Part shown: positions 4,719 to 18,538 of the stretch, one piece after another
How the letters are laid out: the number at the start of each line of letters is the position of its first letter
Position numbering within the stretch: position 1 is the stretch's first letter
From: a bacterium
Lineage (GTDB): Bacteria; JACRDZ01; JAQUKH01
Assembly (NCBI GenBank): GCA_028719205.1
Contig: JAQUKH010000020.1
Coordinates: 1-49,187, forward strand
Length of the DNA: 49,187 nt
Reading direction: 5' to 3'
The notes under the pieces: model-generated
Databases searched by the model: none
Told to the model about the DNA's origin: nothing
Seen by the model: the letters and a program-made list of their open reading frames with translations, nothing else
Program-made: the position numbers and the translations under genes

Positions 4719-6455
4719 TTACATCATTAAATGTTCCACGATCGGGCCCAACGCCAGAGCCGGGAAAAATGTTAATGCCCCGACAATCAAAACGATCATA
4801 ACCAGAAATACTATAAAAAGAGGCGTATGAGTCGGTAAAGTTCCCTGGCTCACCGGTATTATCTTTTTCTTTGAAAGAGAACCCGCAATCGCGAGTGTGG
4901 GAATAGCCAGCCAATAGCGCGCGAAAAACATTGCTATACCCAAAGTCAGATTATAAAATATTGTATTTACGTTTAATCCGGCAAAAGCGCTTCCATTATT
5001 ATTTCCGGCTGAAGAAAAAGCATATAAAATCTCGCTAAAACCGTGCGGCCCCGGATTTAATATTCCAGCCAGTCCCTGCGGCAAAACAACAGCAATAGCA
5101 GTCCCAAAAAGAACAAGCATGGGAGGAATTAAGATACAAATACTTGCCATTTTCATTTCATAAGCTTCTATTTTTTTGCCCAGAAATTCCGGTGTGCGTC
5201 CGATCATCAGCCCTGATATAAATACTGCCACGATCGCGAACATTATCATTCCATAAAGCCCTGAGCCTACACCGCCAAAAACTACCTCGCCTATTTGTAT
5301 CAGCCACATCGGAATTAATCCTGATAAGGGCATATACGAATCGTGCATAGAATTTACGGAACCATTTGAGGCCGCAGTAGTAGCGGCAGCCCAGATTGAC
5401 GAATTAACAATTCCCAAACGGGCCTCTTTCCCTTCCATATTACCGCCGTTCTGAAAAACAACCGCGCTCTGGTCAACACCAAGATTCAGTATTTTAGGAT
5501 TTCCTTTTTGTTCATACGCAATAATTCCAAGCAAACATGGTACGAAAATAATCATCATTGCCGCTATAAAAGCCCATCCCTGCCGCCTGTCTTTAACCAT
5601 ATATCCAAAAGTGTAACATAAGGCGGCAGCTATCAAAAGTATCGAGAGCATTTCTAAAAAATTTGCCAATGCTGTAGGGTTTTCAAATGGATGAGCGGAA
5701 TTTACATTAAAAAATCCTCCACCATTTGTGCCTAACTGTTTAATCGCGATTTGAGAAGCCGCGGGGCCAAGAGGAATTGTCTGCCCGAAAATATCTTTTC
5801 CATCTTTGTCTTTCGATATTTGAAGCAGAGAAGTCTCAGAATAAGGTTTAAAAGTCTGAACTACGCCTTGTGTCACCAAAATCACAGCAAGAACAAGAGA
5901 AAGCGGGATTAAAATATAGAGCGTGGACCTCACCAGATCCACCCAGAAATTACCGATCGTTTCCACCTGCTTTTGCACAAATCCTCTGATAAGCGCTACA
6001 AGAATAGCCATGCCGGTTGCCGCGGACACAAAGTTTTGTACAGTTAATCCAACCATTTGGGTAAGATAACTTAAAGTTGTTTCTCCGCCATAGGCCTGCC
6101 AATTGGTATTTGTGGCAAAGCTTATTGCCGTATTAAACGACAAATCAAACGGCACTCCAGGCATACGCATGGGGTTTAAAGGAAGATATGCCTGAACACG
6201 CTGTAGAATATAAACAACAAAAATCCCTATTATGTTGAATAACATCATGGCAACGGCATATTCTTTCCACACCATACCTGTTTCAGGATTAACACCGGAA
6301 ATCTTATAAATCCATTTTTCAAATGACGCAAACCACACGTTAATACCGGCAGGTTTTCCTTCGTATATTTTCGCCATGTAAATTCCCAATGGTTTAACGC
6401 ACAAAAGCAGTATCCCTAAATATATAGTTACCTGAACCAAATTATTCCAGTTCAC
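4719..6455 (-). CDS. kdpA: K+-transporting ATPase subunit A
   Basis: NTNWQAYGGE, LGTNGGGFF, NNGSAFAG motifs. Start placed at GTG 6455 behind GGAGG; the longer track ORF overlaps kdpF. Confidence 0.97.
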   Translation of the reverse strand: MNWNNLVQVTIYLGILLLCVKPLGIYMAKIYEGKPAGINVWFASFEKWIYKISGVNPETGMVWKEYAVAMMLFNIIGIFVVYILQRVQAYLPLNPMRMPGVPFDLSFNTAISFATNTNWQAYGGETTLSYLTQMVGLTVQNFVSAATGMAILVALIRGFVQKQVETIGNFWVDLVRSTLYILIPLSLVLAVILVTQGVVQTFKPYSETSLLQISKDKDGKDIFGQTIPLGPAASQIAIKQLGTNGGGFFNVNSAHPFENPTALANFLEMLSILLIAAALCYTFGYMVKDRRQGWAFIAAMMIIFVPCLLGIIAYEQKGNPKILNLGVDQSAVVFQNGGNMEGKEARLGIVNSSIWAAATTAASNGSVNSMHDSYMPLSGLIPMWLIQIGEVVFGGVGSGLYGMIMFAIVAVFISGLMIGRTPEFLGKKIEAYEMKMASICILIPPMLVLFGTAIAVVLPQGLAGILNPGPHGFSEILYAFSSAGNNNGSAFAGLNVNTIFYNLTLGIAMFFARYWLAIPTLAIAGSLSKKKIIPVSQGTLPTHTPLFIVFLVMIVLIVGALTFFPALALGPIVEHLMM

Positions 6456-6469
6456 ACAATCCTCCAGTT

Positions 6470-6559
6470 TTAAAATAATTCCGGTTTTAAAAGCGCTACT
6501 ACAAGATAAATAAGTAAAAGTAACGAAACAATTGCACCAATACAATAAATAGCTGACAT
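6470..6559 (-). CDS. kdpF: KdpF, 29-aa membrane peptide
   Basis: MSAIYCIGAIVSLLLLIYLVVALLKPELF with the typical YL..AL.KPE.F end; AAAGGAA RBS; immediately upstream of kdpA. Confidence 0.9.
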   Translation of the reverse strand: MSAIYCIGAIVSLLLLIYLVVALLKPELF

Positions 6560-6730: not shown

Positions 6731-6763
6731 AAATAAAATAACCAGAGAATGTATCTCTGGTTA
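6731..6763 (-). terminator. Intrinsic terminator, expression platform of the riboswitch
   Basis: TAACCAGAGA-tacat-TCTCTGGTTA followed by TTTTATTT on the minus strand. Confidence 0.8.
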
Positions 6764-6767
6764 CATC

Positions 6768-6932
6768 TCTATTATACCTACGAGGTTAGCTGTCGGGCTA
6801 AGGTTGAGAACCTTTATCCACCTAAGCTGGATTTGTCCATCTCAGGCGAATATGCGCCCCAAGGATCTTTCGATCGAATCTGGGTCCCCCGTTTTCTTCA
6901 TTATTAAGAATAAAGAAGAAACTCGGCTTTTA
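6768..6932 (-). ncRNA. c-di-AMP (ydaO/yuaA) riboswitch
   Basis: Minus strand has GCCGAG..ACGGGGGACCCA..TTGGGGCGCAT..GCCCGACAGCTAACCTCGTAGG, the conserved segments of this family, upstream of K+ uptake genes. Confidence 0.88.
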
Positions 6933-6974
6933 AAAAAATTCATTTTGGAGTAGTATACTCCAGTATTTATATAT

Positions 6975-7006
6975 ATACAAGTATAAAATCCCATTTTCAG
7001 GTAACC
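6975..7006 (-). promoter_or_regulatory. Putative alternative-sigma promoter, copy 1 (kdp)
   Basis: GGTTACC-N16-TACTTGTAT, about 45 nt upstream of the riboswitch; identical boxes and spacing to 12018-12049 and 15917-15948. Confidence 0.7.
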
Positions 7007-7148
7007 TGTTTTAACTATTAGCATTACTAAAAATTCATTTTGACATAGAATACAATCATATTTATAAAATAGCAAATCTAAAAAACAATTAAAAATCTTC
7101 GGATTGACTTTTTTATGATTTTGTTATATATTACGCGCGGAGTTTAAT

Positions 7149-7517
7149 ATGCTTACTTTTTTAAAAAAATATAAAAAAATATTTATTATAGGAATTGTAT
7201 TTTTTTTCAGCAATGCTTCGGGATTTGACTATGAGGCTTGTTTAAAATCCCAAAGCAATGTAAAAAAAACAGGATGGTCTTTTACAGGCCGAAATGATTC
7301 TCCCCACAATTTAAAACAAATTTCTCAAAATTTTGAGATCGGCATCACCACTTTTGAGATTAAAGAAGCCGCAGAAAGGTTTTACAGATTATTATTAAAG
7401 GATTCCTGTTTTGGTGTTAACTCCATTACAAAAATATATACTTTAATCGATATTTCATCTTCAATAAAACTTAGTTCTATTCCTATTTTCCTCAAGGATT
7501 GTTCCCTTCTTATTTGA
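7149..7517 (+). CDS. Hypothetical protein with signal-peptide-like N-terminus
   Basis: 122-aa ORF with GGAG RBS and basic/hydrophobic N-terminus; no recognised family. Confidence 0.4.
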   Translation: MLTFLKKYKKIFIIGIVFFFSNASGFDYEACLKSQSNVKKTGWSFTGRNDSPHNLKQISQNFEIGITTFEIKEAAERFYRLLLKDSCFGVNSITKIYTLIDISSSIKLSSIPIFLKDCSLLI

Positions 7518-7645
7518 ACATAAATCCTATTCCGCAAAATATTAATAAATTTAAAGTATTACCTTGTTCTAAATACCTTACTAAGATTGAACTCGATTGA
7601 TTATAATTTAAAGTTTTGTATAAATAGCATTATATGGAGGAAAAA

Positions 7646-10045
7646 ATGAGACTGAGACCAAATTCTGTCAAAATTACATCAGGTGCAATATTTTTGCTTA
7701 TGATCAATCTGATACAATCAGCCAGGGCAGGCGAAGCAGACCTGATCTTGCCTGATCTATCTTCTGTCAGTTTCTTCAGCATAAACGGGCATTCTCTTCT
7801 TTTATATGGCATGTCGATATGCGTATTCGGATTTATTTTCGGTTTAATACAATTCCTGGATATTAAAAAAATGAACGTTCATTCTTCAATGAAGGATGTT
7901 TCAGAGCACATTTACGAAACCTGTAAAACATATCTGTTCGAGCAGGGAAAGTTTATCCTGATGCTTGAGATAATAATAGGAGTTGTGCTTTTCCTGTATT
8001 TTAAATTGTTAAAAAATCTTTCTCTCACAAGCGTCAGTATTATCCTTCTTTCAAGCCTTATAGGAATAATGGGCAGCTATTTTATTGCATGGTTTGGAAT
8101 GCGCATAAACACCATGGCAAATTCCGCTACCGCTTTTAAAAGTTTAGAAGGGAAACCTTATCCGGTTTCTTCTATACCATTGAAAGCCGGGATGAGTATC
8201 GGAATGCTACTGGTAAGTGTAGAATTATTTCTGATGCTTTGCATCCTTTTATTTATTAAAGCGGAATACGCGGGGCCCTGTTTTATCGGTTTTGCTATCG
8301 GTGAATCGCTGAGCGCGTCGGTGCTTAGGATAGCCGGCGGTATTTTTACGAAAATCGCCGATGTCGGCTCAGACCTTATGAAAATAGCCTTTAACATAAA
8401 AGAAGATGACGCGCGTAACCCGGGTGTTATCGCGGATTGCGCGGGCGATAACGCGGGCGATTCAGTAGGCCCTACCGCGGACGGTTTTGAAACTTACGGC
8501 GTAACCGGAGTCGCACTGATCACCTTTATTTTAGTCGCTGTTAAAGACCCGATCTTCCAGGTACAACTTCTGGTTTGGATCTTCGTAATGCGTTTGATCA
8601 TGATCATCGCAAGCGGCTTATCCTACTGGATAAACAATATATATAATTCCGCGCGTTATTCCAACGCTAAAGAGATGAATTTTGAACTGCCTTTAACTTC
8701 ACTTGTATGGATCACTTCGATTGTATCCGTTATTATGACGTTTATTTTTTCTTATCTTTTGATCCCAAATCTTGGAGACGGAGAGTTGTGGTGGAAACTG
8801 GCGACGATCATTACCTGCGGTACAATGGCCGGAGCGCTCATCCCTGAACTCGTAAAGGTTTTTACTTCTACTGAATCACAGTATGTAAAGAACATTCTGC
8901 ATTTTTCAAGAAAAGGCGGAAGTTCCCTTAATGTTCTCGCCGGATTAACTGCCGGAAATTTCAGCGCCTACTGGATGGGAATAGCTATTATGCTTTTAAT
9001 GGGCATAGCCTTCGGGGTAAGCGGCGAGAATATGGCAATCTATATTCATAATCCGGCAATATTCGCGTTCGGCCTTGTCGCGTTCGGCTTTTTAGGAATG
9101 GGGCCGGTTACCATAGCGGTTGATTCCTACGGCCCTGTGGCTGATAACGCCCAGTCAATTTTTGAACTTTCCGTTATCGAACATATCCCAAATATCAGTA
9201 AAGAAATTGAAAAAACATATGGTTTCAAGCCTGATTTTGAACTGGCTAAACATAACCTTGAAGCCAATGACGGAGCAGGAAATACATTTAAAGCAACATC
9301 CAAACCGGTACTCATCGGCACCGCGGTTGTAGGCGCTACTACCATGATCTTTTCTATCATCGCCATTCTTACTCAAGGTTTAACGATCAATATGGATAAA
9401 TTATCTATCATATATCCTCCTTTTTTCCTGGGGCTTATTGCCGGAGGATCGGTAATTTATTGGTTTACCGGAGCATCCATGCACGCGGTCACCGCAGGCG
9501 CGTATCACGCAGTATCCTTTATAAAGGATAATATAAAACTTGACGGAGAAAAAGCCTCGGAAGAAGCAAGTAAAAAGGTTGTGGAGATTTGCACTAAATT
9601 CGCGCAAAAAGGTATGATAAATATTTTTCTCGCGATCCTCTTCAGCACACTTGCCTTTGCCTGTGTAAACCCATTCTTCTTTATCGGCTACCTTATCGCC
9701 ATCGCCATATTCGGCCTGTTCCAGGCGATCTTTATGGCAAATGCCGGAGGCGCTTGGGACAACGCTAAAAAAGTAGTGGAAGTTGATCACAAGGACGAGA
9801 AAGGGTCAGACTTTCATGCCGCCACGATCGTAGGTGATACTGTCGGCGACCCTTTTAAAGATACTTGTTCAGTCGCCATTAATCCTTTGATAAAATTCAC
9901 TACTCTTTTTGGTTTACTGGCAGTCGAAATAGCCATTGAGTTAAACCAGACATTAAATTATATTCTTGCGGGAATTTTATTCGTTTTTTCCATGTATTTT
10001 ATTTTACGTTCGTTCGGCGATATGACGATCCATAATATTGAATAA
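7646..10045 (+). CDS. hppA: Membrane-integral cation-pumping pyrophosphatase, divergent K+-independent type
   Basis: GGIFTKIADVGSDL, EDDARN, DSYGPVADNA, GDTVGDPFKD; GNTFKA at the K+-determinant site. Start at 7646 behind GGAGG. Confidence 0.93.
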   Translation: MRLRPNSVKITSGAIFLLMINLIQSARAGEADLILPDLSSVSFFSINGHSLLLYGMSICVFGFIFGLIQFLDIKKMNVHSSMKDVSEHIYETCKTYLFEQGKFILMLEIIIGVVLFLYFKLLKNLSLTSVSIILLSSLIGIMGSYFIAWFGMRINTMANSATAFKSLEGKPYPVSSIPLKAGMSIGMLLVSVELFLMLCILLFIKAEYAGPCFIGFAIGESLSASVLRIAGGIFTKIADVGSDLMKIAFNIKEDDARNPGVIADCAGDNAGDSVGPTADGFETYGVTGVALITFILVAVKDPIFQVQLLVWIFVMRLIMIIASGLSYWINNIYNSARYSNAKEMNFELPLTSLVWITSIVSVIMTFIFSYLLIPNLGDGELWWKLATIITCGTMAGALIPELVKVFTSTESQYVKNILHFSRKGGSSLNVLAGLTAGNFSAYWMGIAIMLLMGIAFGVSGENMAIYIHNPAIFAFGLVAFGFLGMGPVTIAVDSYGPVADNAQSIFELSVIEHIPNISKEIEKTYGFKPDFELAKHNLEANDGAGNTFKATSKPVLIGTAVVGATTMIFSIIAILTQGLTINMDKLSIIYPPFFLGLIAGGSVIYWFTGASMHAVTAGAYHAVSFIKDNIKLDGEKASEEASKKVVEICTKFAQKGMINIFLAILFSTLAFACVNPFFFIGYLIAIAIFGLFQAIFMANAGGAWDNAKKVVEVDHKDEKGSDFHAATIVGDTVGDPFKDTCSVAINPLIKFTTLFGLLAVEIAIELNQTLNYILAGILFVFSMYFILRSFGDMTIHNIE

Positions 10046-10055
10046 TCAAAAACAG

Positions 10056-10092
10056 ATAATCAGGGGCTCCGAAAACGGAGCCCCTGATTATT
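10056..10092. terminator. Bidirectional terminator between hppA and glnK
   Basis: ATAATCAGGGGCTCCG-aaaa-CGGAGCCCCTGATTAT perfect hairpin between convergent genes. Confidence 0.85.
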
Positions 10093-10094
10093 AT

Positions 10095-10436
10095 TTACCC
10101 GATTGCCTCCGGACCTCGTTCATCAGTACGGATACGCACACATTCGTTTAGATCAAGAACAAATATTTTACCGTCACCTGTTTCGCCCGTTTTGGAGCCT
10201 TTGCTGATAGCTTTTATTGTCTTCTCGACAAAATTATCGTTAACAGCGATCTCTAAACGAATTTTTCTTAACAGGTTACCCGTTTCTCTCGCGCTGCGGT
10301 AAACCTCGGTTACACCTTTCTGACGGCCATGCCCTAATACCTCGCTTACCGTGATAAGATTTATGTCGGACTTATATAGTTCTTCTTTTACTTCTTCTAA
10401 TTTATATGGTTGAATTATTGCTATAATTAATTTCAT
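10095..10436 (-). CDS. glnK: PII nitrogen regulator (GlnK-type, amtB-linked)
   Basis: GHGRQKG, TGETGDGKIFV, RIRT motifs; start MKLIIAIIQP behind AAGGAG. Confidence 0.93.
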   Translation of the reverse strand: MKLIIAIIQPYKLEEVKEELYKSDINLITVSEVLGHGRQKGVTEVYRSARETGNLLRKIRLEIAVNDNFVEKTIKAISKGSKTGETGDGKIFVLDLNECVRIRTDERGPEAIG

Positions 10437-10452
10437 TGTTTTCTCCTTTTTC

Positions 10453-10530
10453 AATGAGCACATTACTTATGGAACACGAAGTGTGAACAGAAGTAATAGT
10501 GCGAATTGAACCCCGATGAACATCGGGGTC
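10453..10530 (-). repeat. Two-hairpin intercistronic element, copy 1
   Basis: GACCCCGATG..ATCGGGGTTCAATTCGCAC..GTGCTCATT, related to 11774-11826 and 14988-15056. Confidence 0.7.
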
Positions 10531-10531
10531 T

Positions 10532-11761
10532 TCATTCCAATATTGTATACGCCCTCTCATGATGCTGGGTAAGATCCAGCCCCATAAGTTCTTCTTTTTC
10601 GGTAACACGCATACCGATCATTAAATCCACAACTTTATAAATAATCACAGTTAATATAACAGAATATACTATTGTAGCCAGAACAGTAACCGCCTGAACC
10701 ATAAACTGTTTAGGATTCCCGAAAAATAAACCGTCCGCACCGGCTGGATTTACCGCCTTTGAGGCAAATAATCCGGTAGCCAACGCGCCCCATATGCCTC
10801 CCATACAATGCACTCCAAAAACATCCAGCGAATCGTCGTATTTCAAAGCTGGTTTTATAACACTTACGGCAAAAAAACATATAACGCTGACAAACATTCC
10901 TATAACAATCGCTGACATTACACTGACAAATCCCGCAGCCGGAGTGATGGCAACCAAACCCGCCACAATACCACTCACCGTCCCAAAAATTGTAGGTTTA
11001 CCGTTTTTCAACCATTCAATAATTGCCCAGGTCAGCCCCGCGGCAGCCGCTGAAGTATTAGTAACTACAAAAGCGTTAACCGCCAATCCATTCGCGGCAA
11101 GGGCGCTACCCGCATTAAAACCGAACCAGCCAAACCATAATAAACCGGTCCCTAAAACGATAAAAGGCAAATTATGCGGAGTTGGCGTGCTGTGTTCGAT
11201 ATTTTTCCGTCTGCCGATCAAAATTGCTGTAACTAAAGCGGCAACACCCGCGCTTATATGAACAACTGTTCCTCCGGCAAAATCAAGCGCGCCCATATTT
11301 TTAAACCATCCGCCGACTCCCCATACCCAATGGCAAACGGGATTATAAACAAGGGTCGCCCACAAAATTGTAAATAACAAAAATGCTGAAAATTTCATCC
11401 TCTCGGCAAAAGCACCGATGATCAAGGCAGGCGTAATTATGGCAAACATTCCCTGATATATCATGAATGCCTGGTGAGGAATAGTCGCGGCATAATCCGC
11501 ATAAGGTTCAAAACCCACCCCGTTCAAACCAAGCCACTGAAGGCCACCAATAAATCCATTTCCAGGAGCAAATGATAAACTGTAACCGTATACGACCCAT
11601 TCAATGCTTATTACGCATAGAATTATAAAACATTGCATTAAAATACCTAATATATTTTTTCTTCTAACCATTCCGCCATAGAAAAATGCCAGTGCCGGGG
11701 TCATTAGCATTACTAATGCCGCTGAAAACAAAACGAAAGCTGTGTCACCTGAATTTATCAT
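10532..11761 (-). CDS. amtB: Ammonium transporter
   Basis: DFAGGTVVH, WFGWFGFNAGS, DDSLDVFGVH motifs. Confidence 0.98.
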   Translation of the reverse strand: MINSGDTAFVLFSAALVMLMTPALAFFYGGMVRRKNILGILMQCFIILCVISIEWVVYGYSLSFAPGNGFIGGLQWLGLNGVGFEPYADYAATIPHQAFMIYQGMFAIITPALIIGAFAERMKFSAFLLFTILWATLVYNPVCHWVWGVGGWFKNMGALDFAGGTVVHISAGVAALVTAILIGRRKNIEHSTPTPHNLPFIVLGTGLLWFGWFGFNAGSALAANGLAVNAFVVTNTSAAAAGLTWAIIEWLKNGKPTIFGTVSGIVAGLVAITPAAGFVSVMSAIVIGMFVSVICFFAVSVIKPALKYDDSLDVFGVHCMGGIWGALATGLFASKAVNPAGADGLFFGNPKQFMVQAVTVLATIVYSVILTVIIYKVVDLMIGMRVTEKEELMGLDLTQHHERAYTILE

Positions 11762-11773
11762 TTTATCCTCTCA

Positions 11774-11826
11774 AATGAGTCCCGATAACAATCGGGACGA
11801 GTTTGACCCCGATTTTACATCGGGGC
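11774..11826 (-). repeat. Two-hairpin element, copy 2
   Basis: GCCCCGATG..ATCGGGGTCAAACTCGTCCCGAT..ATCGGGACTCATT just before the amtB RBS. Confidence 0.65.
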
Positions 11827-11897
11827 ATGTTTTAGTTTATACTTTGCCTTCTTTGATAACTTACTCATTTATATATACAACTGTATAAATACAAGGC

Positions 11898-11983
11898 AAA
11901 AAAAAGACGCGCATAAAAGACATAATTGTCTTTGATGAACGCCTCTGTTCATTGCTTATATTTTATTCAGCACTGCATTGTGC
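11898..11983 (-). promoter_or_regulatory. ANTAR-type attenuator of amtB-glnK
   Basis: GCAC-AATGCA-GTGC and ATGAAC-AGAGGC-GTTCAT hexaloop hairpins; the second overlaps a terminator ending in a T-run. Confidence 0.82.
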
Positions 11984-12017
11984 CTGATTATTTGATTAAA
12001 CAATTGTATTATTAATA

Positions 12018-12049
12018 ATACAAGTAAAATATTACCTATTTTGGTAACC
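12018..12049 (-). promoter_or_regulatory. Putative alternative-sigma promoter, copy 2 (amtB)
   Basis: GGTTACC-aaaataggtaatattt-TACTTGTAT. Confidence 0.72.
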
Positions 12050-12058
12050 TAATAGTTT

Positions 12059-12397
12059 TTACAAAGCTTTTTCGCCTTTTTCGCCTGTTCTGATCCTTAT
12101 GGCATTTTCAATATTGTGTATAAATATTTTCCCGTCTCCAATTTCACCTGTTTTTAAATTATCAATTATTGTATTAACAATCGCTTCCACATCCTTATTG
12201 TTAACAACAAGTTCCAGTTTTGTTTTAGACATAAGTTCCACGCTAGAATCTTCACCTTGCCGCTTACAGGTTACACCTTTCTGCCTGCCATATCCTTCTA
12301 TCTCTGTAATCGTTATACCCAAGTAACCGACTGTTTCTAAAACCTTAAACACTATATCGAGTTTTTCAGGCCGAATTATCACCTCTATTTTTTTCAT
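12059..12397 (-). CDS. PII family nitrogen regulator
   Basis: MKKIEVIIRP, GYGRQKG, TGEIGDGKIF, RIRTGE. Confidence 0.93.
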   Translation of the reverse strand: MKKIEVIIRPEKLDIVFKVLETVGYLGITITEIEGYGRQKGVTCKRQGEDSSVELMSKTKLELVVNNKDVEAIVNTIIDNLKTGEIGDGKIFIHNIENAIRIRTGEKGEKAL

Positions 12398-12453
12398 TTT
12401 TTATTACCTCAATTATTTAATTAAACAAATGAATAAACGAAAGGCAAAAAAAA

Positions 12454-12633
12454 TTAATCTATTTCCAATTTTGTTTTTACCAGATTCGCGTAAACTTTAT
12501 TGATGCGATTAGTCTTTAACCATCTTTCGATTGTAGCGATCTGCACATCAAGGATCTTAGACAGATCATAAAGCGTGTATTTCTTGACCTCTTTTATCCT
12601 GATTATTTTTTCAATTAATTCTTTATCTATCAT
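12454..12633 (-). CDS. 59-aa Cro/XRE-like helix-turn-helix protein
   Basis: Hand translation MIDKELIEKIIRIKEVKKYTLYDLSKILDVQIATIERWLKTNRINKVYANLVKTKLEID; HTH pattern; AGGAA RBS; fills the gap between two PII genes. Confidence 0.75.
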   Translation of the reverse strand: MIDKELIEKIIRIKEVKKYTLYDLSKILDVQIATIERWLKTNRINKVYANLVKTKLEID

Positions 12634-12650
12634 GTTATTTCCTAAAATTG

Positions 12651-12680
12651 GTAGGGGAGGGTTTCAACCCCGCCCCTACA
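12651..12680. repeat. GTAG-type REP palindrome
   Basis: GTAGGGGAGGGTTTCAACCCCGCCCCTAC. Confidence 0.6.
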
Positions 12681-12688
12681 TTAATAAT

Positions 12689-13027
12689 TTACAATGCTTT
12701 TTCACCTTTTTCTCTGGTGCGTATCCTTACTACATCTTCAACAGGATATATAAATATTTTACCATCTCCTATTTTTCCTGTAAAAGCGGCTTCACATATA
12801 GCGTTAATAATCTTATCCAAATCCTCATCTTTTGTCACGATCTCGATCTTTGCCTTGTTGATCAATTCCATTTTATATGTTTTACCGCGTAATTTCTGTT
12901 CCAGGCCTTTCTGTTTCCCGTGCCCTTCAACCTCGCTGATCATCAAACCCGGGTGGCCGACTTTCTCTAAAATAGAAATTACGTCGCCGACTTTCGAAGG
13001 CCGGATCACTGCTTCTATTTTTTTCAT
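12689..13027 (-). CDS. PII family nitrogen regulator
   Basis: MKKIEAVIRP, GHGKQKG, T-loop LRGKTY, TGKIGDGKIF. Confidence 0.93.
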   Translation of the reverse strand: MKKIEAVIRPSKVGDVISILEKVGHPGLMISEVEGHGKQKGLEQKLRGKTYKMELINKAKIEIVTKDEDLDKIINAICEAAFTGKIGDGKIFIYPVEDVVRIRTREKGEKAL

Positions 13028-13044
13028 TTTATATTCCTTTCATT

Positions 13045-13089
13045 GGGCGGGTTTACCTGCCCGCCGCAGGCAGGAAACCCGCCCTTACA
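13045..13089. repeat. REP-like palindrome with inserted hairpin
   Basis: GGGCGGGTTT-ACCTGCC..GCAGG..-AAACCCGCCCTTACA, related to the REP at 12651. Confidence 0.55.
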
Positions 13090-13101
13090 GATTATATTAA
13101 T

Positions 13102-14970
13102 TTATATTGCCTTTACTCCCATCTCTCCTGTACGTATACGCATGACTTCCGACGCGTCGGTCACAAATATTTTACCATCCCCAATATTCCCCGTACGGGC
13201 CGCTTCGCTTATAATATCCATAATTTTAGGTACATCCCACTCTTTGACAACAACATCTATCCTTATTTTTGGAAGGAAATTTATTGTATCACTGCCAGGA
13301 TCTCCATCAGCTTTACCTTTTTGCCGTCCGAAACCTTTTACCTTAGTTACTGTCATTCCCATAATAAAATCTTCCTCTTTAAGAACTTCAACAACAAGGT
13401 TAAGATAATCCGGCCGGATCATACACGACACCATTTTTAAACGGTTTGTTTTACGAACGGTGGTTACCGCTACATAAAGAACAGTTATTAACGCCCATGC
13501 GCCGGCAATAACAAAACAGATCTGCGCTTCCGCCTTTGAATCAGCATTACCAATAGAATACAAATAAATTATCGCGGCAAGCATAATAACGTTTGTTATA
13601 ACTCCCAATACCGGAACAATAACATGTTTTACAACACTGAAATCCTTTCTATCTTTGAACGCTACGATAGTCCAGATACATGTCAAACCATAAAGAACAA
13701 ACGTTCCGAAATTTGATGCAAGTGTAATACCAACTAAACCGACTACCGACCGGATACCAACGGCCGCGATTATCGACGTGGCTATTATCAATACAGCCAG
13801 TGTCATGTAAGGAACACCTGTCTCCGCGTGCAAAAAAGAGAAGTCTTTCGGCAGTTCCCGGTCATCAGCCATACCCGCAGTTACCCGTATGGCGGTATTC
13901 ATACAACTCAAGGTCGTACCTATTATCGCGATTGCTACAGTAAGTGCCATGGTGATCATCAAGCCGAATCCGATCCCGTTAAAGAGAGAATTACCAAGGA
14001 TCTTTGTAAGGTCTCCGATCGGCGCACTTGACGCCGCAGCCGCCGCCATACCGGTCAGTGTGGTCCCGTTAACTAAAACTGTTAACTTTTCATTAACCAT
14101 ATATCCCGCAGCTAAATACTCCAGTAGATAAGCAAACAATCCCTGGATCACAAGAGAAAGTATAATCGCTTTCGGTAATGTATTCTGCGGGTTTTCGGTT
14201 TCTGATGCTAAAGCAGTACAGCTCTCAAAACCAACAAGGATCAAAATCGCGATTGTGGACTGGATAAGCACACCGTTAAACGAATGCGGTTTAATTACAT
14301 CAATCGCGCCCGAAAAGGACCATTGAGCTGCAACCTGTGGATTTGAAATTCGATACCATATGGCCAATCCGCTGAAAATAACTAACGCGGCCCATTGGAT
14401 AATATTGATCCAAAGCGCTGTAGTTGTTGAACCGGTTATTCCGCGATATGCAATGTATCCTGTTACAGCTGAAAATATGATACAAAATAATGTAAGGGTC
14501 GATACTGATAAAGCTGCTCCGGTAAACTGTGTATAAATATACCCGACAAGAGTCGCCATCATCGCCACCATAACCCCCGGATATACCCAATAGAAAAGAT
14601 GCGCCGACCAGCCTGTAACGATCTTTGCGATACGGGCAATTGATTTAGGCCCGCTTTCTTTTTCTTTACGGCTGTCCAAAAAAGCCCTTTCGGCAAAATA
14701 GACACAGCTTGCAAAACCCGCTTCGGGATAAATTCTCGCGAGTTCCGCGTACGCGAGAGCAGTCAGCATCGCGACTATCAAGGCAAGTACAATACCGGCC
14801 CAGATATCACTCGCGACCGATGCCCCGTTTGGAGCCGTGGCCGCTGCCTGCAGCTGGAAAGTGATCCATAAAAACGCCCCGGGCGCTATTAAAGCCATCG
14901 CGTTCACCGTAGCACCTAACAATCCCAGTTTAGGTTTTACTGTTTTTGTTGTAATTTCATTGTTTGACAT
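13102..14970 (-). CDS. APC-family permease fused to a C-terminal PII domain
   Basis: Multi-TM body with GFESC..LASE APC motif; last ~110 aa contain MIRP, GFGRQKG, TGNIGDGKIFV, RIRTGE; single open frame. Confidence 0.9.
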   Translation of the reverse strand: MSNNEITTKTVKPKLGLLGATVNAMALIAPGAFLWITFQLQAAATAPNGASVASDIWAGIVLALIVAMLTALAYAELARIYPEAGFASCVYFAERAFLDSRKEKESGPKSIARIAKIVTGWSAHLFYWVYPGVMVAMMATLVGYIYTQFTGAALSVSTLTLFCIIFSAVTGYIAYRGITGSTTTALWINIIQWAALVIFSGLAIWYRISNPQVAAQWSFSGAIDVIKPHSFNGVLIQSTIAILILVGFESCTALASETENPQNTLPKAIILSLVIQGLFAYLLEYLAAGYMVNEKLTVLVNGTTLTGMAAAAASSAPIGDLTKILGNSLFNGIGFGLMITMALTVAIAIIGTTLSCMNTAIRVTAGMADDRELPKDFSFLHAETGVPYMTLAVLIIATSIIAAVGIRSVVGLVGITLASNFGTFVLYGLTCIWTIVAFKDRKDFSVVKHVIVPVLGVITNVIMLAAIIYLYSIGNADSKAEAQICFVIAGAWALITVLYVAVTTVRKTNRLKMVSCMIRPDYLNLVVEVLKEEDFIMGMTVTKVKGFGRQKGKADGDPGSDTINFLPKIRIDVVVKEWDVPKIMDIISEAARTGNIGDGKIFVTDASEVMRIRTGEMGVKAI

Positions 14971-14987
14971 AAGAATTCCTCCTTTTT

Positions 14988-15056
14988 AATGAGCACATCG
15001 TCCCGATGTCCTTCGGGATGATAGTGCGAATTGAACCCCGATGCAACATCGGGGTC
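14988..15056 (-). repeat. Two-hairpin element, copy 3
   Basis: GACCCCGATG..ATCGGGGTTCAATTCGCAC..GTGCTCATT before the APC-PII RBS. Confidence 0.7.
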
Positions 15057-15108
15057 TAATTCAGTCTACAATTCAGCTTCGCTTTTAACTTGCTAAATTA
15101 TGACTTCA

Positions 15109-15816
15109 TTAGAAGTTAATATCTAATTGTGTTGTTACCGTATTATTTACAGTTATCTTATCATTGTTATAAATGGTATAAGCAAAAATGATACTTGTAT
15201 TTGGAGCAAAAAGATAAGAAAAACCCAAACTTGTTGAGCCGTAAAAACTTTTGCCGGACGCATAATCAACTGCAGCCCACACTTTGTCTGAAATTGCTTT
15301 ATCCCATGTAGCGATTAATCCGGTATTTGCCTTGTCGCCAATTTCATCTACCAACAATTTTTTATTTCCGATATAATAACCAAGTGAAATCCTCCCGATA
15401 GGATTAAATGTTTTAGCAACTACTCCGTAAATAATATTGTAATCAGTCACATCTTTTTTTGTGCCGGCATTACATAACCCAAATGCTATAGCCGGAATAA
15501 CCTCTTTTTCAGAAAACCCATATTTTGCATTAAATTGTACCGGATTTTCAGAAGGCTCAAAAAAATCAATACCCACTTCTAAATTTTTAACCAGCCCATA
15601 AGTTAACCCGACATCTGTAGGAAATGCAACCGGATGATCTTTGTTATCTTTTACCGAGAAATAATTATCGATACCCAAATGCCATGTTTTTACAGCCTGT
15701 ATATCCGTTGAAGGATTCCATATCTGGGTTGAAGGTGTAGCGTGAGCAAAATTCATAACACAGAAATTAAACGCAAAAACCAGAACAAACAATTTTATCA
15801 TTTTAAACTTTTTCAT
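15109..15816 (-). CDS. Probable outer-membrane beta-barrel protein (porin-like)
   Basis: Signal peptide ending AHA, amphipathic beta-strand pattern, C-terminal TTQLDINF; start MKKFK behind AAGGAG. Confidence 0.7.
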   Translation of the reverse strand: MKKFKMIKLFVLVFAFNFCVMNFAHATPSTQIWNPSTDIQAVKTWHLGIDNYFSVKDNKDHPVAFPTDVGLTYGLVKNLEVGIDFFEPSENPVQFNAKYGFSEKEVIPAIAFGLCNAGTKKDVTDYNIIYGVVAKTFNPIGRISLGYYIGNKKLLVDEIGDKANTGLIATWDKAISDKVWAAVDYASGKSFYGSTSLGFSYLFAPNTSIIFAYTIYNNDKITVNNTVTTQLDINF

Positions 15817-15839
15817 TTTTCTCCTTTTTGACGCCAAAT

Positions 15840-15908
15840 AAAAAAGGCGCTCATTTTATCCATCCTGGATTAAAATAACGCCTTTGTAGTTTTTACACTT
15901 CTATGTGT
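15840..15908 (-). promoter_or_regulatory. ANTAR-type attenuator of the porin/APC-PII/PII operon
   Basis: ACAC-ATAGAA-GTGT and AC-AAAGGC-GT; the second overlaps terminator AAAGGCGTTATTTT..AAAATGAGCGCCTTTTTT. Confidence 0.72.
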
Positions 15909-15916
15909 TTCTAATT

Positions 15917-15948
15917 ATACAAGTAATAATTTGATAAGATTGGTAACC
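15917..15948 (-). promoter_or_regulatory. Putative alternative-sigma promoter, copy 3
   Basis: GGTTACC-aatcttatcaaattat-TACTTGTAT, directly after the sigma-factor stop codon. Confidence 0.72.
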
Positions 15949-15956
15949 GGAAGTAC

Positions 15957-16475
15957 TTATTTCCAAACATACTTCCCGCATTTCCCTCTGATCTTATTTG
16001 TTATTTTTATTACGGCAACATGGGATATGTCCAATTTATCGCCTATTTCCCTTGTTGTTAAACCTCTAGCTATTAAGTTTAATACATCCTTTTCACGCTT
16101 ATCAAAACTTTTCATTAAATTTTCTACTATGATCTTGTTGTTTAGATTATCCAGATCATTTTCTGAATGTTTGTCTCTCAGGGATAATATTTCCTTCGAT
16201 GATGTATTTTCATCATCAAGCAAAGCCTCAATACTTACAAATTTCATGTCGGTATTTACCCTGCGGAGATAATTTTTAAGATAGAAATAACAACCTTGCA
16301 GGATATAGCTGTCTGTTTTGTTTTCTAATTTTCCTTCCTGATATTCCAGCCAGAGATGCAGTAATGATTCCTGAAGCAGGTCATCATCATTAAAGAACGT
16401 AAAATGCCCGTTCAATTTATATGTGATATTTTTTAATGTCGGAGATATTCTTTCTACAATAGTATCAAAATTCAT
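15957..16475 (-). CDS. Alternative (ECF/SigH-sized) sigma-70 family factor
   Basis: 172 aa; region 2 DDLLQESLLHLW and region 4 HTH LTTREIGDKLDISHVAV; start MNFDT behind GGAGG. Confidence 0.88.
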   Translation of the reverse strand: MNFDTIVERISPTLKNITYKLNGHFTFFNDDDLLQESLLHLWLEYQEGKLENKTDSYILQGCYFYLKNYLRRVNTDMKFVSIEALLDDENTSSKEILSLRDKHSENDLDNLNNKIIVENLMKSFDKREKDVLNLIARGLTTREIGDKLDISHVAVIKITNKIRGKCGKYVWK

Positions 16476-16484
16476 TTTTCCTCC

Positions 16485-16609
16485 AAAAAAAATGGCGTTC
16501 CTTAAATCCATCACCGGATAAAAGGAACGCCATAGTTCCAAAAAAAAATGCCTTCCCGCGGTTCTGCCCGTGAGAAGACATCAATGTCTTTTTAATACTT
16601 CTTTGTATT
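16485..16609 (-). promoter_or_regulatory. Tandem ANTAR-type attenuator (three hexaloop hairpins, two terminators)
   Basis: AATAC-AAAGAA-GTATT; AAGAC-ATTGAT-GTCTT overlapping terminator 1; GGAAC-TATGGC-GTTCC overlapping terminator 2. Confidence 0.8.
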
Positions 16610-16618
16610 TATGACATT

Positions 16619-16646
16619 ATTATAACACAAAATTTATTTATGTCAA
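16619..16646 (-). promoter_or_regulatory. Housekeeping sigma-70 promoter of the sigma gene
   Basis: TTGACA-N16-TATAAT with TGn extended -10. Confidence 0.8.
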
Positions 16647-16691
16647 TAATATTATTTAATAAAATCATATCAATTTAATTCATACAACTTT

Positions 16692-16728
16692 AAAAAAAGC
16701 GCCCCGATTTCAATCGGAGCGCTTTTTG
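16692..16728 (-). terminator. Intrinsic terminator after the glutamate synthase-like gene
   Basis: AAAAAGCGCTCCGAT-tgaa-ATCGGGGCGCTTTTTTT. Confidence 0.8.
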
Positions 16729-16752
16729 CCCTAATATTGCTGCAAATTAAAA

Positions 16753-18345
16753 CTACTTACCGTCAATTATTTTTTCTGCTTCTTTGCGGTAATTATCCAT
16801 TACATAAGGTATTCCTGATATTTTAGTAGCTTCTTCAGTTAAACTCATAACGTCTTTTCTTGAGATGGTTGACAAATTAAAATTACGGGACCCGGCCATT
16901 AATTGCTGTAACCCGACTTTAATTCTCTGGGAAAAGGTATAAATTCCAACCGCGCCTAATGGAATGTCCTTCATATCCTTGCCATATTTTTCAGCGAGTT
17001 CTTCATAACAAACAAATATTTCCTCCGGTTTGGCACCAAATTCTGATACTGCGTTTGGTAAATTGTTGGTCTTAATCCAATGATCGATATTTTTACCTAC
17101 AAAACCCGGTATCATCAATGCCCTTCCCATACAAACCGCCTTAACATACGGGGCACCCATGGCAATTACCTTAAATACATGATCTTCTAATGAAAAACCG
17201 CCGGCAATCGCGATATCAGGAACACGCATTTTTTTCTTAGTTAGTTTCTGACAAAATTCATACGCGAGAGATTGCAAATAGAATGTAGGTATACCCCATT
17301 CCTGCATCATTCTCCATGGTGACATCCCTGTTCCGCCAGGCGCGCCGTCAATTGTCAAAAGGTCTATCTTTGCCTCTGAACAGTATCTGATAGCCTGCGC
17401 TAATTCCACCATAGAATACGCGCCTGTTTTTAGAGTGATCCTTTCAAATCCTAAACCGCGCAAACGTTTAATTTCCTTCATAAAACCTTCTTGCGAAACA
17501 AAACCAAGACGGGAATGCCTTTCAAATTCTTTTATTGCTCCCGCTTTATACGCCTGATGAACTGCATTGTCTGTAGGATCAGGTGTCACTATATAACCGC
17601 GTTTTTTTAATTCTATAGCCCTGTCCAGTGATTTAACTTTTATTTCTCCTCCGATACACTTTGCTCCCTGTCCCCATTTTAATTCTATAGTATTTAATTT
17701 ATGTTTTTTTATTACATATTCAGCCACCCCTAAACGAGTATCTTCAACATTCATCTGAACTAATATTTCACCATAACCTTCGTGAAATCTTTTGTAAAGC
17801 GCGATACGCCTATCCATTTCAGGCGAATTTGTAATTTTACCTTTGCTGTCCAATTCCAGTTTTGGGTCAATACCGCAAACATTTTCACCGCACACAAGCG
17901 TTACACCGGATATTGCCGCGCCTATAGAAAAATGTTCCCAATTTTTACGGGCAATTTCCGTGGATCCCAGCGCGCCGGTAAAAATTGGAGCCTTCATTTT
18001 TACTTTTTTTGTCCATCCATATTCTGTTTCTGTATTTACCGCGGGAAAAATCGCTGTGTCCGGATTACCGTCAATACCCTTTGGTAAACCTTTCGCTCCC
18101 TGCGCGTAGCCCTGGATATTCAAATGTGAATAATCTACAGGATAATTTTTGTCGCCGCCCGCTGTTATTTCACCAAATGGGCCGGGATAAATTACTTCTC
18201 TGCCTCTAAATGATGATTTAAAAACTTCACAATTACCGCGACAGGATTCAAGACATCTCGAACACAAACCCGAGCATGGAACCACATTTTTTGAGCGGTT
18301 TGATGTTCTGGTTGCATCATTACCACCAGGGCTTCGTAAATTCAT
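16753..18345 (-). CDS. Stand-alone FMN-binding glutamate synthase family protein
   Basis: IELKWGQGAK..GGE, DGAPGGTG, Cys-rich N-terminus; no glutamine amidotransferase domain; start MNLRS behind AGGAGA. Confidence 0.85.
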   Translation of the reverse strand: MNLRSPGGNDATRTSNRSKNVVPCSGLCSRCLESCRGNCEVFKSSFRGREVIYPGPFGEITAGGDKNYPVDYSHLNIQGYAQGAKGLPKGIDGNPDTAIFPAVNTETEYGWTKKVKMKAPIFTGALGSTEIARKNWEHFSIGAAISGVTLVCGENVCGIDPKLELDSKGKITNSPEMDRRIALYKRFHEGYGEILVQMNVEDTRLGVAEYVIKKHKLNTIELKWGQGAKCIGGEIKVKSLDRAIELKKRGYIVTPDPTDNAVHQAYKAGAIKEFERHSRLGFVSQEGFMKEIKRLRGLGFERITLKTGAYSMVELAQAIRYCSEAKIDLLTIDGAPGGTGMSPWRMMQEWGIPTFYLQSLAYEFCQKLTKKKMRVPDIAIAGGFSLEDHVFKVIAMGAPYVKAVCMGRALMIPGFVGKNIDHWIKTNNLPNAVSEFGAKPEEIFVCYEELAEKYGKDMKDIPLGAVGIYTFSQRIKVGLQQLMAGSRNFNLSTISRKDVMSLTEEATKISGIPYVMDNYRKEAEKIIDGK

Positions 18346-18409
18346 GAAATTAAATCTCCTTTCATAATAATTATGCACATATTGCCTATTTTTTAGGCAT
18401 ACTCAAAGC

Positions 18410-18485
18410 AAAAAAAAACCTGCTTCACCATTTTCTGGACGCCATTGTCCACTTATTCGGTAAAATTACCTTGCGCCATTGCAAG
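18410..18485 (-). promoter_or_regulatory. ANTAR-type twin hairpin leader
   Basis: CTTGC-AATGGC-GCAAG and TGGAC-AATGGC-GTCCA followed by a T9 tract; terminator stem is weak. Confidence 0.8.
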
Positions 18486-18510
18486 ATACGGGTTTTCTTA
18501 ATAAAAGAAA

Positions 18511-18538
18511 ATGATAATACAAAATAAACTTTTGTCAA
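18511..18538 (-). promoter_or_regulatory. Sigma-70 promoter
   Basis: TTGACA-N16-TATCAT upstream of the ANTAR hairpins. Confidence 0.65.

Follow-up and report, generated by a model that had tools for sequence, protein, structure and literature searches.

A stretch of bacterial DNA of 49,187 nucleotides, hereafter the window, carries on its minus strand a gene for a sigma factor followed by genes for nitrogen acquisition, and these are probably controlled in two tiers: an antiterminator of the ANTAR family would gate the sigma gene, then gate again the transcripts that the sigma factor initiates. The window is contig C20 of a draft genome (G000; 2.59 Mb in 68 contigs, 92.7% complete), and the analysis was wholly computational. 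The window's own phylum is small, with six genomes compared, among them a sister genome of the same genus that also bears the sigma gene (G004). Beyond it, the closest relatives of the sigma factor belong to Candidatus Omnitrophota and neighbouring candidate phyla. We compared 20 related sigma loci (L-numbers below) and the 20 sigma-bearing genomes in which they lie, as well as an even sample of 151 genomes from the phylum of locus L009. Judging from their sequences, the two-tier wiring appears to be widespread in related uncultured bacteria.

The scheme that we propose would work as follows. In the first tier, promoters of the sigma-70 type would drive glnN (contig C11), gltBD (contig C51), a glutamate-synthase-like (GltS-like) gene and the sigma gene itself. 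Their transcripts would start with an ANTAR-type attenuator, that is, two hairpins capped by hexaloops, the second in competition with an intrinsic terminator. A protein made of a GAF and an ANTAR domain would sense nitrogen status, become active in nitrogen limitation and bind the nascent hairpins, with read-through as the outcome. In the second tier, the sigma factor would direct RNA polymerase to promoters of the form GTTACCA-N16-TACTTGTAT, found before amtB-glnK, before an operon for a porin, an APC permease fused to PII and PII proteins, and before a glutamine amidotransferase/Fis-type helix-turn-helix (HTH) pair on C51; the leaders of these transcripts would need the antiterminator again. 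The whole would make a coherent feed-forward loop with AND logic, slow to switch on and filtering for persistent signals, immediate to switch off. The kdp potassium-uptake transcript would use the same sigma-type promoter, with a cyclic di-AMP (c-di-AMP) riboswitch as its second gate. A tier driven by the sigma-70-type factor and a tier driven by the dedicated one would thus coexist in a single genome.

The sigma factor and its probable promoter class

The initial annotation took the product of the sigma gene, a protein of 172 residues, for an alternative sigma factor, and we agree. The model TIGR02937 matches it at 49.6 bits (cut-off 42.9) over residues 3-168, region 2 included. Its size and domains fit group 4, the extracytoplasmic function (ECF) type, which consists of regions 2 and 4 only in about 170-200 residues, and the motifs of both regions are kept in an alignment of 21 homologues. 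Such homologues are numerous (623 at E <= 1e-10), with generic names only among the 120 listed. A predicted structure of moderate confidence (predicted local distance difference test, pLDDT, 74) consists of two helical domains and a disordered linker; all its best fold matches are sigma factors (ECF, SigH, SigB, sigma-28), with modest E-values of 1e-3 to 1e-1. Pfam yields a sole match above cut-off, GerE/LuxR, at the C-terminal helix-turn-helix. Sigma-54 is encoded elsewhere in the genome (G000:C10:61586-62053; PF04552, 184 bits), which qualifies the earlier remark that the window holds no sigma-54 or NtrC component: the ECF-type factor coexists with sigma-54 and is not a stand-in for a lost gene.

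The window has three copies of the motif GGTTACC-N16-TACTTGTAT, all on the minus strand, and none of 100 dinucleotide-preserving shuffles contained even one; no other exact copy is present in the 2.59-Mb genome. Two of them, before the porin operon and before amtB-glnK, had been named at the outset and are real; the third, previously unnamed, stands before the kdp leader. The copy ahead of the porin operon starts 9 nucleotides past the stop codon of the sigma gene. This placement recurs: in 18 of the 20 related loci, as in the window, a copy lies at most about 70 nucleotides after that codon. A position weight matrix (PWM) built from 40 foreign sites, with consensus GTTACCAaaA-N6-tTTTTTTACTTGTAT, retrieves exactly four strong sites from the genome (41.8, 38.2, 34.9 and 25.6, the next best scoring 15.3). 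They are the three sites of the window and a site at C51:4455-4498, which precedes a class-I glutamine amidotransferase gene and a gene for a Fis-type HTH protein.

Across genomes, the motif travels with the sigma factor. The 20 sigma-bearing genomes contain 43 sites of the form GTTACC-N15-17-ACTTGTA, against 3 in the reversed control. Within the window's phylum, the sister genome has five motif sites and the four genomes without a sigma match have none. The sample of 151 genomes divides into 24 with the sigma factor and 127 without it. All 15 genomes with a close sigma factor (E <= 1e-54) have the motif, as against one of the nine with a divergent one; among the 127 sigma-less genomes it was found in three, one copy each, all without a T-tract. 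That this sigma factor reads the motif is suggested by their co-occurrence, by where the motif lies and by its asymmetric, two-block form.

Ahead of the sigma gene itself there is a sigma-70-type promoter and no copy of the motif, which points to the absence of autoregulation from its own promoter type. The TTGACA-type promoters earlier assigned to the sigma and GltS-like genes turned out to be the two best sigma-70-type matches between positions 6500 and 18700; counted together, promoter-like sites are no more frequent there than chance would give (43 vs 39.5 +/- 7 expected). As a separate observation, one relative carries a further copy of the sigma gene, in which a TGA codon stands in frame (G013:C6:60500-61009), directly followed by a motif copy of the AACTTGTA variant.

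Leaders of the two proposed tiers and the GAF-ANTAR protein

Four leaders of the window, those of the GltS-like gene, the sigma gene, the porin operon and amtB, contain a pair of hexaloop hairpins, P1 and P2, and all eight loops have A at position 1 and G at position 4. In the sigma leader, P1 (AUAC-AAAGAA-GUAU) and P2 (AGAC-AUUGAU-GUCU) are joined by a third hexaloop hairpin, GGAAC-UAUGGC-GUUCC (16539-16524), with U at loop position 1, and by two tandem terminators; the fold reaches -55.9 kcal/mol (z -7.7). The same layout is seen in the sister genome, where the loop AAAGAA becomes AAAGAG and AUUGAU becomes AUAGAU, positions 1 and 4 being unchanged. Elsewhere in the genome, the units that join a TTGACA promoter to an ANTAR-type leader are those of glnN on C11, with a leader nearly identical to that of the sigma gene, and of gltBD on C51, to which the GltS-like gene is to be added. 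The GltS-like leader has the hairpins CUUGC-AAUGGC-GCAAG and GGAC-AAUGGC-GUCC. In the second tier, the porin leader has ACAC-AUAGAA-GUGU and AC-AAAGGC-GU (fold z -4.85), and the amtB leader GGCAC-AAUGCA-GUGCU and AUGAAC-AGAGGC-GUUCAU (fold z -3.35). Two clear hairpins are visible in the sigma, amtB, GltS-like and C51 leaders. A terminator overlaps the second hairpin in the porin and amtB leaders and, twice over, in the sigma leader. Of the hairpin-plus-terminator leaders first described here, the hairpins therefore stand in all four cases and the terminators in three, the GltS-like leader lacking one.

Conservation in relatives gives these hairpins their weight. Second-tier leaders have a conserved pair at 10-35 nucleotides past ACTTGTA, P1 being NCAC-AUUGNA-GUGN and P2 NAC-ANAGGC-GUY. 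The GGCGUY of P2 is the 5' arm of the terminator, and a second P2/terminator unit often follows. G at position 4 belonged to the filter by which the relatives' leaders were selected, so that its invariance there is not independent. A covariance model, R1, built from 22 second-tier leaders picked by this hairpin filter, gave 45 matches at E <= 0.05 over about 364 kb of loci. It finds leaders on which it had not been trained: those of amtB and the porin in the sister genome, of GS-I and GS-III (glutamine synthetase), of nifH, of the C51 site, and of the sigma gene in the window (25.7 bits, E 2e-4) and in the sister genome. The GltS-like leader gave a weak match (18469-18437; 14.1 bits, E 0.32). 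In an earlier run, weak matches (E > 1e-3) fell on the gene strand in 19 cases out of 19. Over 44 distinct matches, 91.2% of cells pair and there are 36 two-sided changes, against 7.0 +/- 3.5 after shuffling (none of 500 shuffles reaching 36) and 0-3 in slid controls. The leader hairpins are thus conserved and covary in relatives, a point that the initial annotation had proposed to check. The search of the whole genome with R1 scored 150 of 911 candidates and missed the sigma leader, so that the genome's list of leaders is a lower bound.

The first-tier leaders of the relatives were read by eye. A TTGACA promoter followed by P1/P2 and a terminator stands directly before the sigma gene in the window and in L003, L006, L008, L009, L017, L018 and L020. 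The same arrangement precedes a nadE-sigma unit in L002, L004, L010, L011, L012 and L015 (nadE was confirmed on L010), and an ANTAR-sigma unit in L005. In L007 and L013, a short hairpin or terminator-like element lies just ahead of the sigma gene, downstream of ANTAR and GltS-like genes. The recurrence of promoter and attenuator, whether the sigma gene comes alone or after nadE or an ANTAR gene, supports the proposal that the sigma gene is subject to ANTAR-type gating. We note that nadE encodes glutamine-dependent NAD synthetase, co-transcribed with the sigma gene behind a single ANTAR-type leader in six relatives; such units would tie NAD synthesis to the same switch.

An ANTAR protein had been predicted to be encoded outside the window. 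The genome has exactly one match to PF03861, a GAF-ANTAR protein of 240 residues on contig C3 (65.9 bits in the genome search, 62.9 in the Pfam scan). By sequence, its C-terminus is nearest to Rv1626 and a response regulator chain, its GAF domain to those of PtsP, Aquifex Nlh1 and NifA. The GAF domains of NifA and PtsP sense 2-oxoglutarate or glutamine, and because of this likeness we infer that 2-oxoglutarate or glutamine may be the signal. In seven of the 20 loci the GAF-ANTAR gene lies at most 10 kb upstream of the sigma gene on the same strand, and 19 of the 20 sigma-bearing genomes, as well as the sister genome, have a full-length orthologue. The sigma-less genomes of the window's phylum have GAF-only matches (G001-G003) or a gene split over two contig ends (G005). 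In the sample of 151 genomes, the protein is present in 23 of the 24 sigma-bearing genomes; for 17 of these 24, comparison of coordinates places it on the contig of the sigma gene, no more than about 16 kb away.

Several points weigh against this two-tier reading. In the window's genome the ANTAR gene stands between a TPR gene and pfk, with no linkage to the sigma gene. The GAF-ANTAR protein occurs in 91 of the 151 genomes, the sigma factor in 24; the former being far commoner, co-occurrence in that direction is weak evidence. For the same reason the sigma tier, confined to a subset of the genomes bearing GAF-ANTAR, looks like an add-on to an older ANTAR regulon. Among the leaders, that of the GltS-like gene is the weakest case, without a canonical overlapping terminator (fold z -1.58) and without conservation in the sister genome, and the P2 stem of the porin leader comprises 2 bp only. 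No clear attenuator precedes the sigma unit of L021, and in L014, L016 and L019 the contig ends inside nadE, which leaves the leader out of view. A generic scan of the genome for two hexaloop hairpins and a T-run gave 82 hits vs 74 in the reversed control, and a looser scan for hexaloop pairs gave 520 vs 520. Such pairs not being above chance, the hairpins are meaningful only through their conservation in relatives, and defining the regulon from structure alone was dropped. Even there, R1 was trained on leaders picked by the hairpin filter and its alignment was fitted to the model, so that the pair statistics lean towards structure. Finally, no anti-sigma candidate was noticed among the neighbouring genes, no dedicated search having been made, and a further layer of control on the sigma factor is therefore possible.

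Other readings have to be weighed against the same evidence. The motif might be the operator of a DNA-binding activator, with the housekeeping sigma factor transcribing; the activator would be the 'sigma' protein itself, as a regulator of the LuxR/GerE type, or the 59-residue HTH protein, or the Fis-type one. The single Pfam match fits this, HTH and Fis-HTH genes belong to the regulon of several genomes, and co-occurrence by itself cannot separate a sigma factor from an activator. Yet the 172-residue protein passes the cut-off of the sigma-70/ECF superfamily over its whole length, region 2 included, its fold matches are sigma factors and not the output domains of response regulators, and the 59-residue HTH protein is present in 4 of the 20 loci only. 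The motif, moreover, is asymmetric, with two blocks 16-17 nucleotides apart, and ends 10-35 nucleotides ahead of the first leader hairpin, much as a -35/-10 pair would, and at its three sites in the window there is no sigma-70-like match of 10/12 or better. We consider an operator improbable, and a promoter class proper to the sigma factor the better account.

The leaders, for their part, might be constitutive or answer to something else, such as a metabolite-sensing RNA, a PII-linked factor or a different RNA-binding protein. The unlinked ANTAR gene, the abundance of generic hexaloop pairs by chance and the five PII domains crowding the locus can all be cited to this effect. Set against them are the hallmarks of ANTAR targets as described in print (PMC3369931), two A1/G4 hexaloops and, in three of the four leaders, a second hairpin overlapping the terminator, together with the variation of the other loop positions between the sigma leaders of the window and the sister genome. 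The genome encodes exactly one ANTAR protein, the orthologues of which adjoin sigma and target genes in many relatives, and Rfam at gathering thresholds finds no riboswitch or other family in the ANTAR-type leaders, its only matches being the c-di-AMP riboswitch and one tRNA. Control of the leaders by another agent seems to us unlikely. One may also imagine that there is no AND gate, enough sigma factor being made whatever its attenuator does, with the antiterminator alone deciding and the sigma factor contributing promoter insulation or strength. Indeed, GAF-ANTAR regulons exist in 68 of the 127 sigma-less genomes of the sample, so that the antiterminator suffices elsewhere, and in many loci the sigma gene is co-transcribed with nadE, a gene of the housekeeping type. 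The sigma unit nevertheless has an ANTAR-type attenuator, often two in tandem, in most loci with a visible leader, which would be hard to explain if the level of the sigma factor were unimportant. To this last reading, too, we give little credence. We infer that the GAF-ANTAR protein binds leaders in both tiers, and that the loop would have the dynamics of an AND gate.

Predicted regulon members, potassium uptake and gene layout

Among the 46 distinct motif sites that we examined, 45 have a downstream open reading frame (ORF). Behind them stand genes for amtB (8), porin-family proteins (4), PII (3), APC-PII (3), the 59-residue HTH protein (1) and kdpA (1), and further GS-I, GS-III, nifH, trkA, Fis-HTH and other beta-barrel genes, this last group having been confirmed by Pfam on ten representatives; five of the ORFs are short or unclear. 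In 19 of the 20 loci, genes for porin, PII, APC-PII, amtB-glnK or HTH proteins come after the sigma gene on its own strand, the exception being L007, a short contig. By its predicted gene content, the sigma regulon is a nitrogen-acquisition regulon. The initial label of nitrogen regulon thus fits the uptake targets but is too narrow, with the motif standing also before kdp here and before trkA in the sister genome.

Two members call for a comment of their own. In the sister genome nifH (L028:1501-2584) has a sigma-type promoter and an R1-positive leader (29.2 bits); a tblastn search did not find nifH in the window's own genome. A Fis-family HTH protein of about 125 residues, with an apparently truncated receiver-like N-terminus, is a recurrent member (L061:5355-5729, which is the C51 gene of the window's genome; also L045, L060 and L038). 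It could be a remnant of NtrC or a feedback regulator.

The regulon would also take in potassium uptake. On the kdp transcript, a c-di-AMP riboswitch stands where the ANTAR leader would be. Control of potassium uptake by such riboswitches is known, and the kdp leader resembles the described family (RF00379, ydaO/kimA-type), scoring above its gathering threshold. The difference is that it lies here behind a nitrogen-type sigma promoter, as a consequence of which potassium uptake would need both signals. In the sister genome a motif copy is found 47 nucleotides upstream of trkA (L027:809-1453), a gene that has in the window's genome a TTGACA-type promoter instead. With the motif before kdp in one genome and before trkA in the other, potassium uptake would have joined the regulon at least twice in the genus, and these promoters possibly link potassium and nitrogen homeostasis. 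A further juxtaposition of nitrogen and potassium functions, this time without the sigma-type motif, was seen in an Elusimicrobia-labelled locus (L016:844-3384): behind the sigma gene lie a sigma-70-type promoter, a c-di-AMP riboswitch scoring 73.4 bits with RF00379, a PtsN-type EIIA-2 gene of the phosphotransferase system (PTS) and kdpA.

The features of the window are collected in the table. That the genes from porin to PII make up one operon is a putative assignment, drawn solely from the lack of further promoter motifs between them. A divergent gene for an H+-pyrophosphatase lies between amtB-glnK and the kdp riboswitch. The GltS-like gene has its likely start at ATG 18345, with AGGAG in front; L007, L011 and L013 have orthologues of 79-85% identity upstream of the sigma gene, and in L021 a partial match, more distant at 57%, lies about 9 kb ahead of that gene.

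Features of the window that bear on the proposed nitrogen control, in the direction of transcription
Feature	Position	Strand	Basis or detail
Sigma-70-type promoter of the GltS-like gene, TTGACA-16-TATCAT	18511..18538	-	11/12
GltS-like leader	18410..18485	-	hairpins 18485-18470 and 18450-18437; U9 run 18418-18410
Glutamate-synthase-like (GltS-like) gene	16753..18378	-	PF01645, covering the protein in part
Sigma-70-type promoter of the sigma gene, TTGACA-16-TATAAT with TG	16619..16646	-	12/12, best of the region
Sigma leader	16484..16608	-	P1/P2 16608-16576; terminators 16582-16547 and 16533-16492, each with a U run
Sigma gene, 172 aa, ECF-type sigma-70 family	15957..16475	-	TIGR02937
Sigma-type promoter 1, before the porin operon	15917..15948	-	exact motif; PWM 25.6
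Porin-operon leader	15837..15908	-	R1 41.1 bits; terminator 15885-15843 with a U run
Putative operon porin/APC-PII/PII/HTH/PII	12059..15816	-	Pfam and model searches
Porin, 235 aa, 12-strand beta-barrel	15109-15816	-	fold matches; no Pfam match
APC permease fused to PII	13102-14970	-	
PII	12689-13027	-	
HTH-like protein, 59 aa	12454-12633	-	
PII	12059-12397	-	
Sigma-type promoter 2, before amtB-glnK	12018..12049	-	exact motif; PWM 34.9
amtB leader	11896..11984	-	R1 34.9 bits; terminator 11945-11904 with a U run
amtB	10532-11761	-	PF00909, 4e-131
glnK	10095-10463	-	PF00543, 2.7e-26
Sigma-type promoter 3, before the kdp leader	6975..7006	-	exact motif; PWM 38.2
c-di-AMP riboswitch	6760-6938	-	RF00379, 62.7 bits (gathering score 38), full model length
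Riboswitch with terminator-like hairpin, kdp leader	6738..6938	-	hairpin 6764-6738
kdpA, potassium-transporting ATPase subunit A	4719..6545	-	PF03814, 2e-243

Some of these genes deserve attention by themselves. The porin has a predicted signal peptide, and its barrel is nearest to specific porins of the KdgM/NanC type (template-modelling, TM, scores 0.56/0.61). In several relatives its orthologues have the sigma gene on one side and amtB on the other, a placement that suggests a channel through the outer membrane for ammonium or a nitrogen compound. In the APC-family permease the C-terminal PII domain covers residues 512-616, and the protein is conserved at 65-73% identity in L003, L018, L020 and L050; it appears to be a transporter that carries its own nitrogen sensor. 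Just ahead of the ribosome-binding sites of glnK, amtB and APC-PII, we found strong hairpins, CCCCGATG..ACATCGGGG or TCCCGAT..ATCGGGA (10512-10527, 11781-11824 and 15002-15053). Those before amtB and APC-PII, of the form CCCCGAT...ATCGGGG, were considered as an extra regulatory RNA and rejected, because they belong to a repeat family dispersed over many contigs. The core has 53 copies in the genome vs 14 in the reversed control, and the copies on C1, C6, C15, C29 and C62 have common flanks. It looks like an element akin to repetitive extragenic palindromes or miniature inverted-repeat transposable elements (REP/MITE), not a nitrogen switch.

Significance and relation to known systems

Nitrogen control is a classic example of bacterial regulation and, to our knowledge, the solutions described for it (NtrBC/sigma-54, GlnR, TnrA, NtcA, AmtR) all act mainly at initiation. 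If the scheme is true, the part of master nitrogen switch would here fall to an antiterminator, on which the making of a dedicated sigma factor would also depend, and two proteins would be enough to make a natural coherent feed-forward AND gate. The defined promoter motif and RNA element can be tested in heterologous hosts, which matters for organisms that cannot be cultured, and they offer a first functional handle on GAF-ANTAR proteins. A bolder generalization, which we put forward tentatively and are a little more inclined to doubt than to assert, would run as follows. In Omnitrophota and neighbouring candidate phyla, a single GAF-ANTAR protein reading 2-oxoglutarate or glutamine directly would be the master nitrogen regulator. 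It would be a one-component RNA-binding protein acting wholly after initiation, with a private ECF-type sigma factor as second tier, in place of NtrC/sigma-54 although sigma-54 is present. In the genus of the window, the sigma factor would have captured kdp or trkA as well, and its pairing on kdp with the c-di-AMP riboswitch would make an AND gate of a second kind, coupling nitrogen and potassium status.

Among ECF (group 4) sigma factors there are some, HrpL for example, that are regulated through how much of them is made and not by an anti-sigma factor. Like them, the sigma factor of the window is small, with no regions but 2 and 4, and it would have a bipartite promoter of its own and a compact regulon beside its gene. 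The usual ECF promoter has the pattern AAC / CGT; the blocks are here GTTACCA / ACTTGTA, and the gene, by its upstream sequence, would not be autoregulated, its synthesis being gated by attenuation. Compared with the NtrBC/sigma-54 system of Proteobacteria, which endows amtB-glnK, glnA and nif genes with a promoter class of their own, the sigma factor of the window would be a functional analogue, with dedicated sigma-dependent promoters on nitrogen genes. It differs in belonging to an unrelated sigma family and in working without an enhancer-binding protein.

The RNA element is familiar. Ramesh et al. (2012; PMC3369931) defined the dual-hexaloop target of ANTAR proteins and predicted such elements before genes for P-II, ammonium transporters and glutamate or glutamine synthases in many phyla. 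Apart from the GltS-like leader, which lacks the terminator, the leaders described here have the same features as the targets of EutV/EutW, NasR and AmiR, a dual hexaloop with a second hairpin overlapping an intrinsic terminator, and the target gene classes are those of the nitrogen regulons of that work (PMC3369931). The differences are that the regulator would be a one-component GAF-ANTAR protein with the sigma gene among its targets, and that most of these targets would be read from promoters of the sigma factor, not from housekeeping ones. No GAF-ANTAR protein had been characterized at the time, according to the same authors (PMC3369931). A review of 2025 lists GAF among the sensor domains of ANTAR proteins, and a system of this kind is not treated in the passages of it that were searched (PMC12591593). 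Full-text searches of the literature listed no paper on an ANTAR-controlled sigma factor or on an ECF sigma factor for ammonium uptake, with the proviso that the supplements of PMC3369931 may list similar leaders. A dedicated sigma tier under ANTAR control seems, then, to be undescribed in print.

This narrows the initial statement that no nitrogen regulon of such architecture had been described: no publication with the dedicated sigma tier was found, but a related feed-forward cascade exists in Geobacter sulfurreducens, and is the nearest described architecture. There, as Ueki and Lovley (2010; PMC2995071) report, a master two-component system activates nitrogen-fixation genes and, besides, a second two-component system, an antiterminator, the targets of which are a subset of these genes. 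The Geobacter cascade, from GnfL/GnfM to GnfK/GnfR, thus combines, as we propose for the window, a regulator of initiation and an ANTAR antiterminator in a feed-forward arrangement on the same nitrogen genes. The tiers come in the opposite order: the antiterminator is switched on by an enhancer-binding protein in Geobacter (PMC2995071), whereas here the antiterminator would gate the initiation factor. This factor would moreover be an ECF-type sigma factor, where Geobacter has an enhancer-binding protein that works with another sigma factor, and the Geobacter cascade has no dedicated sigma factor.

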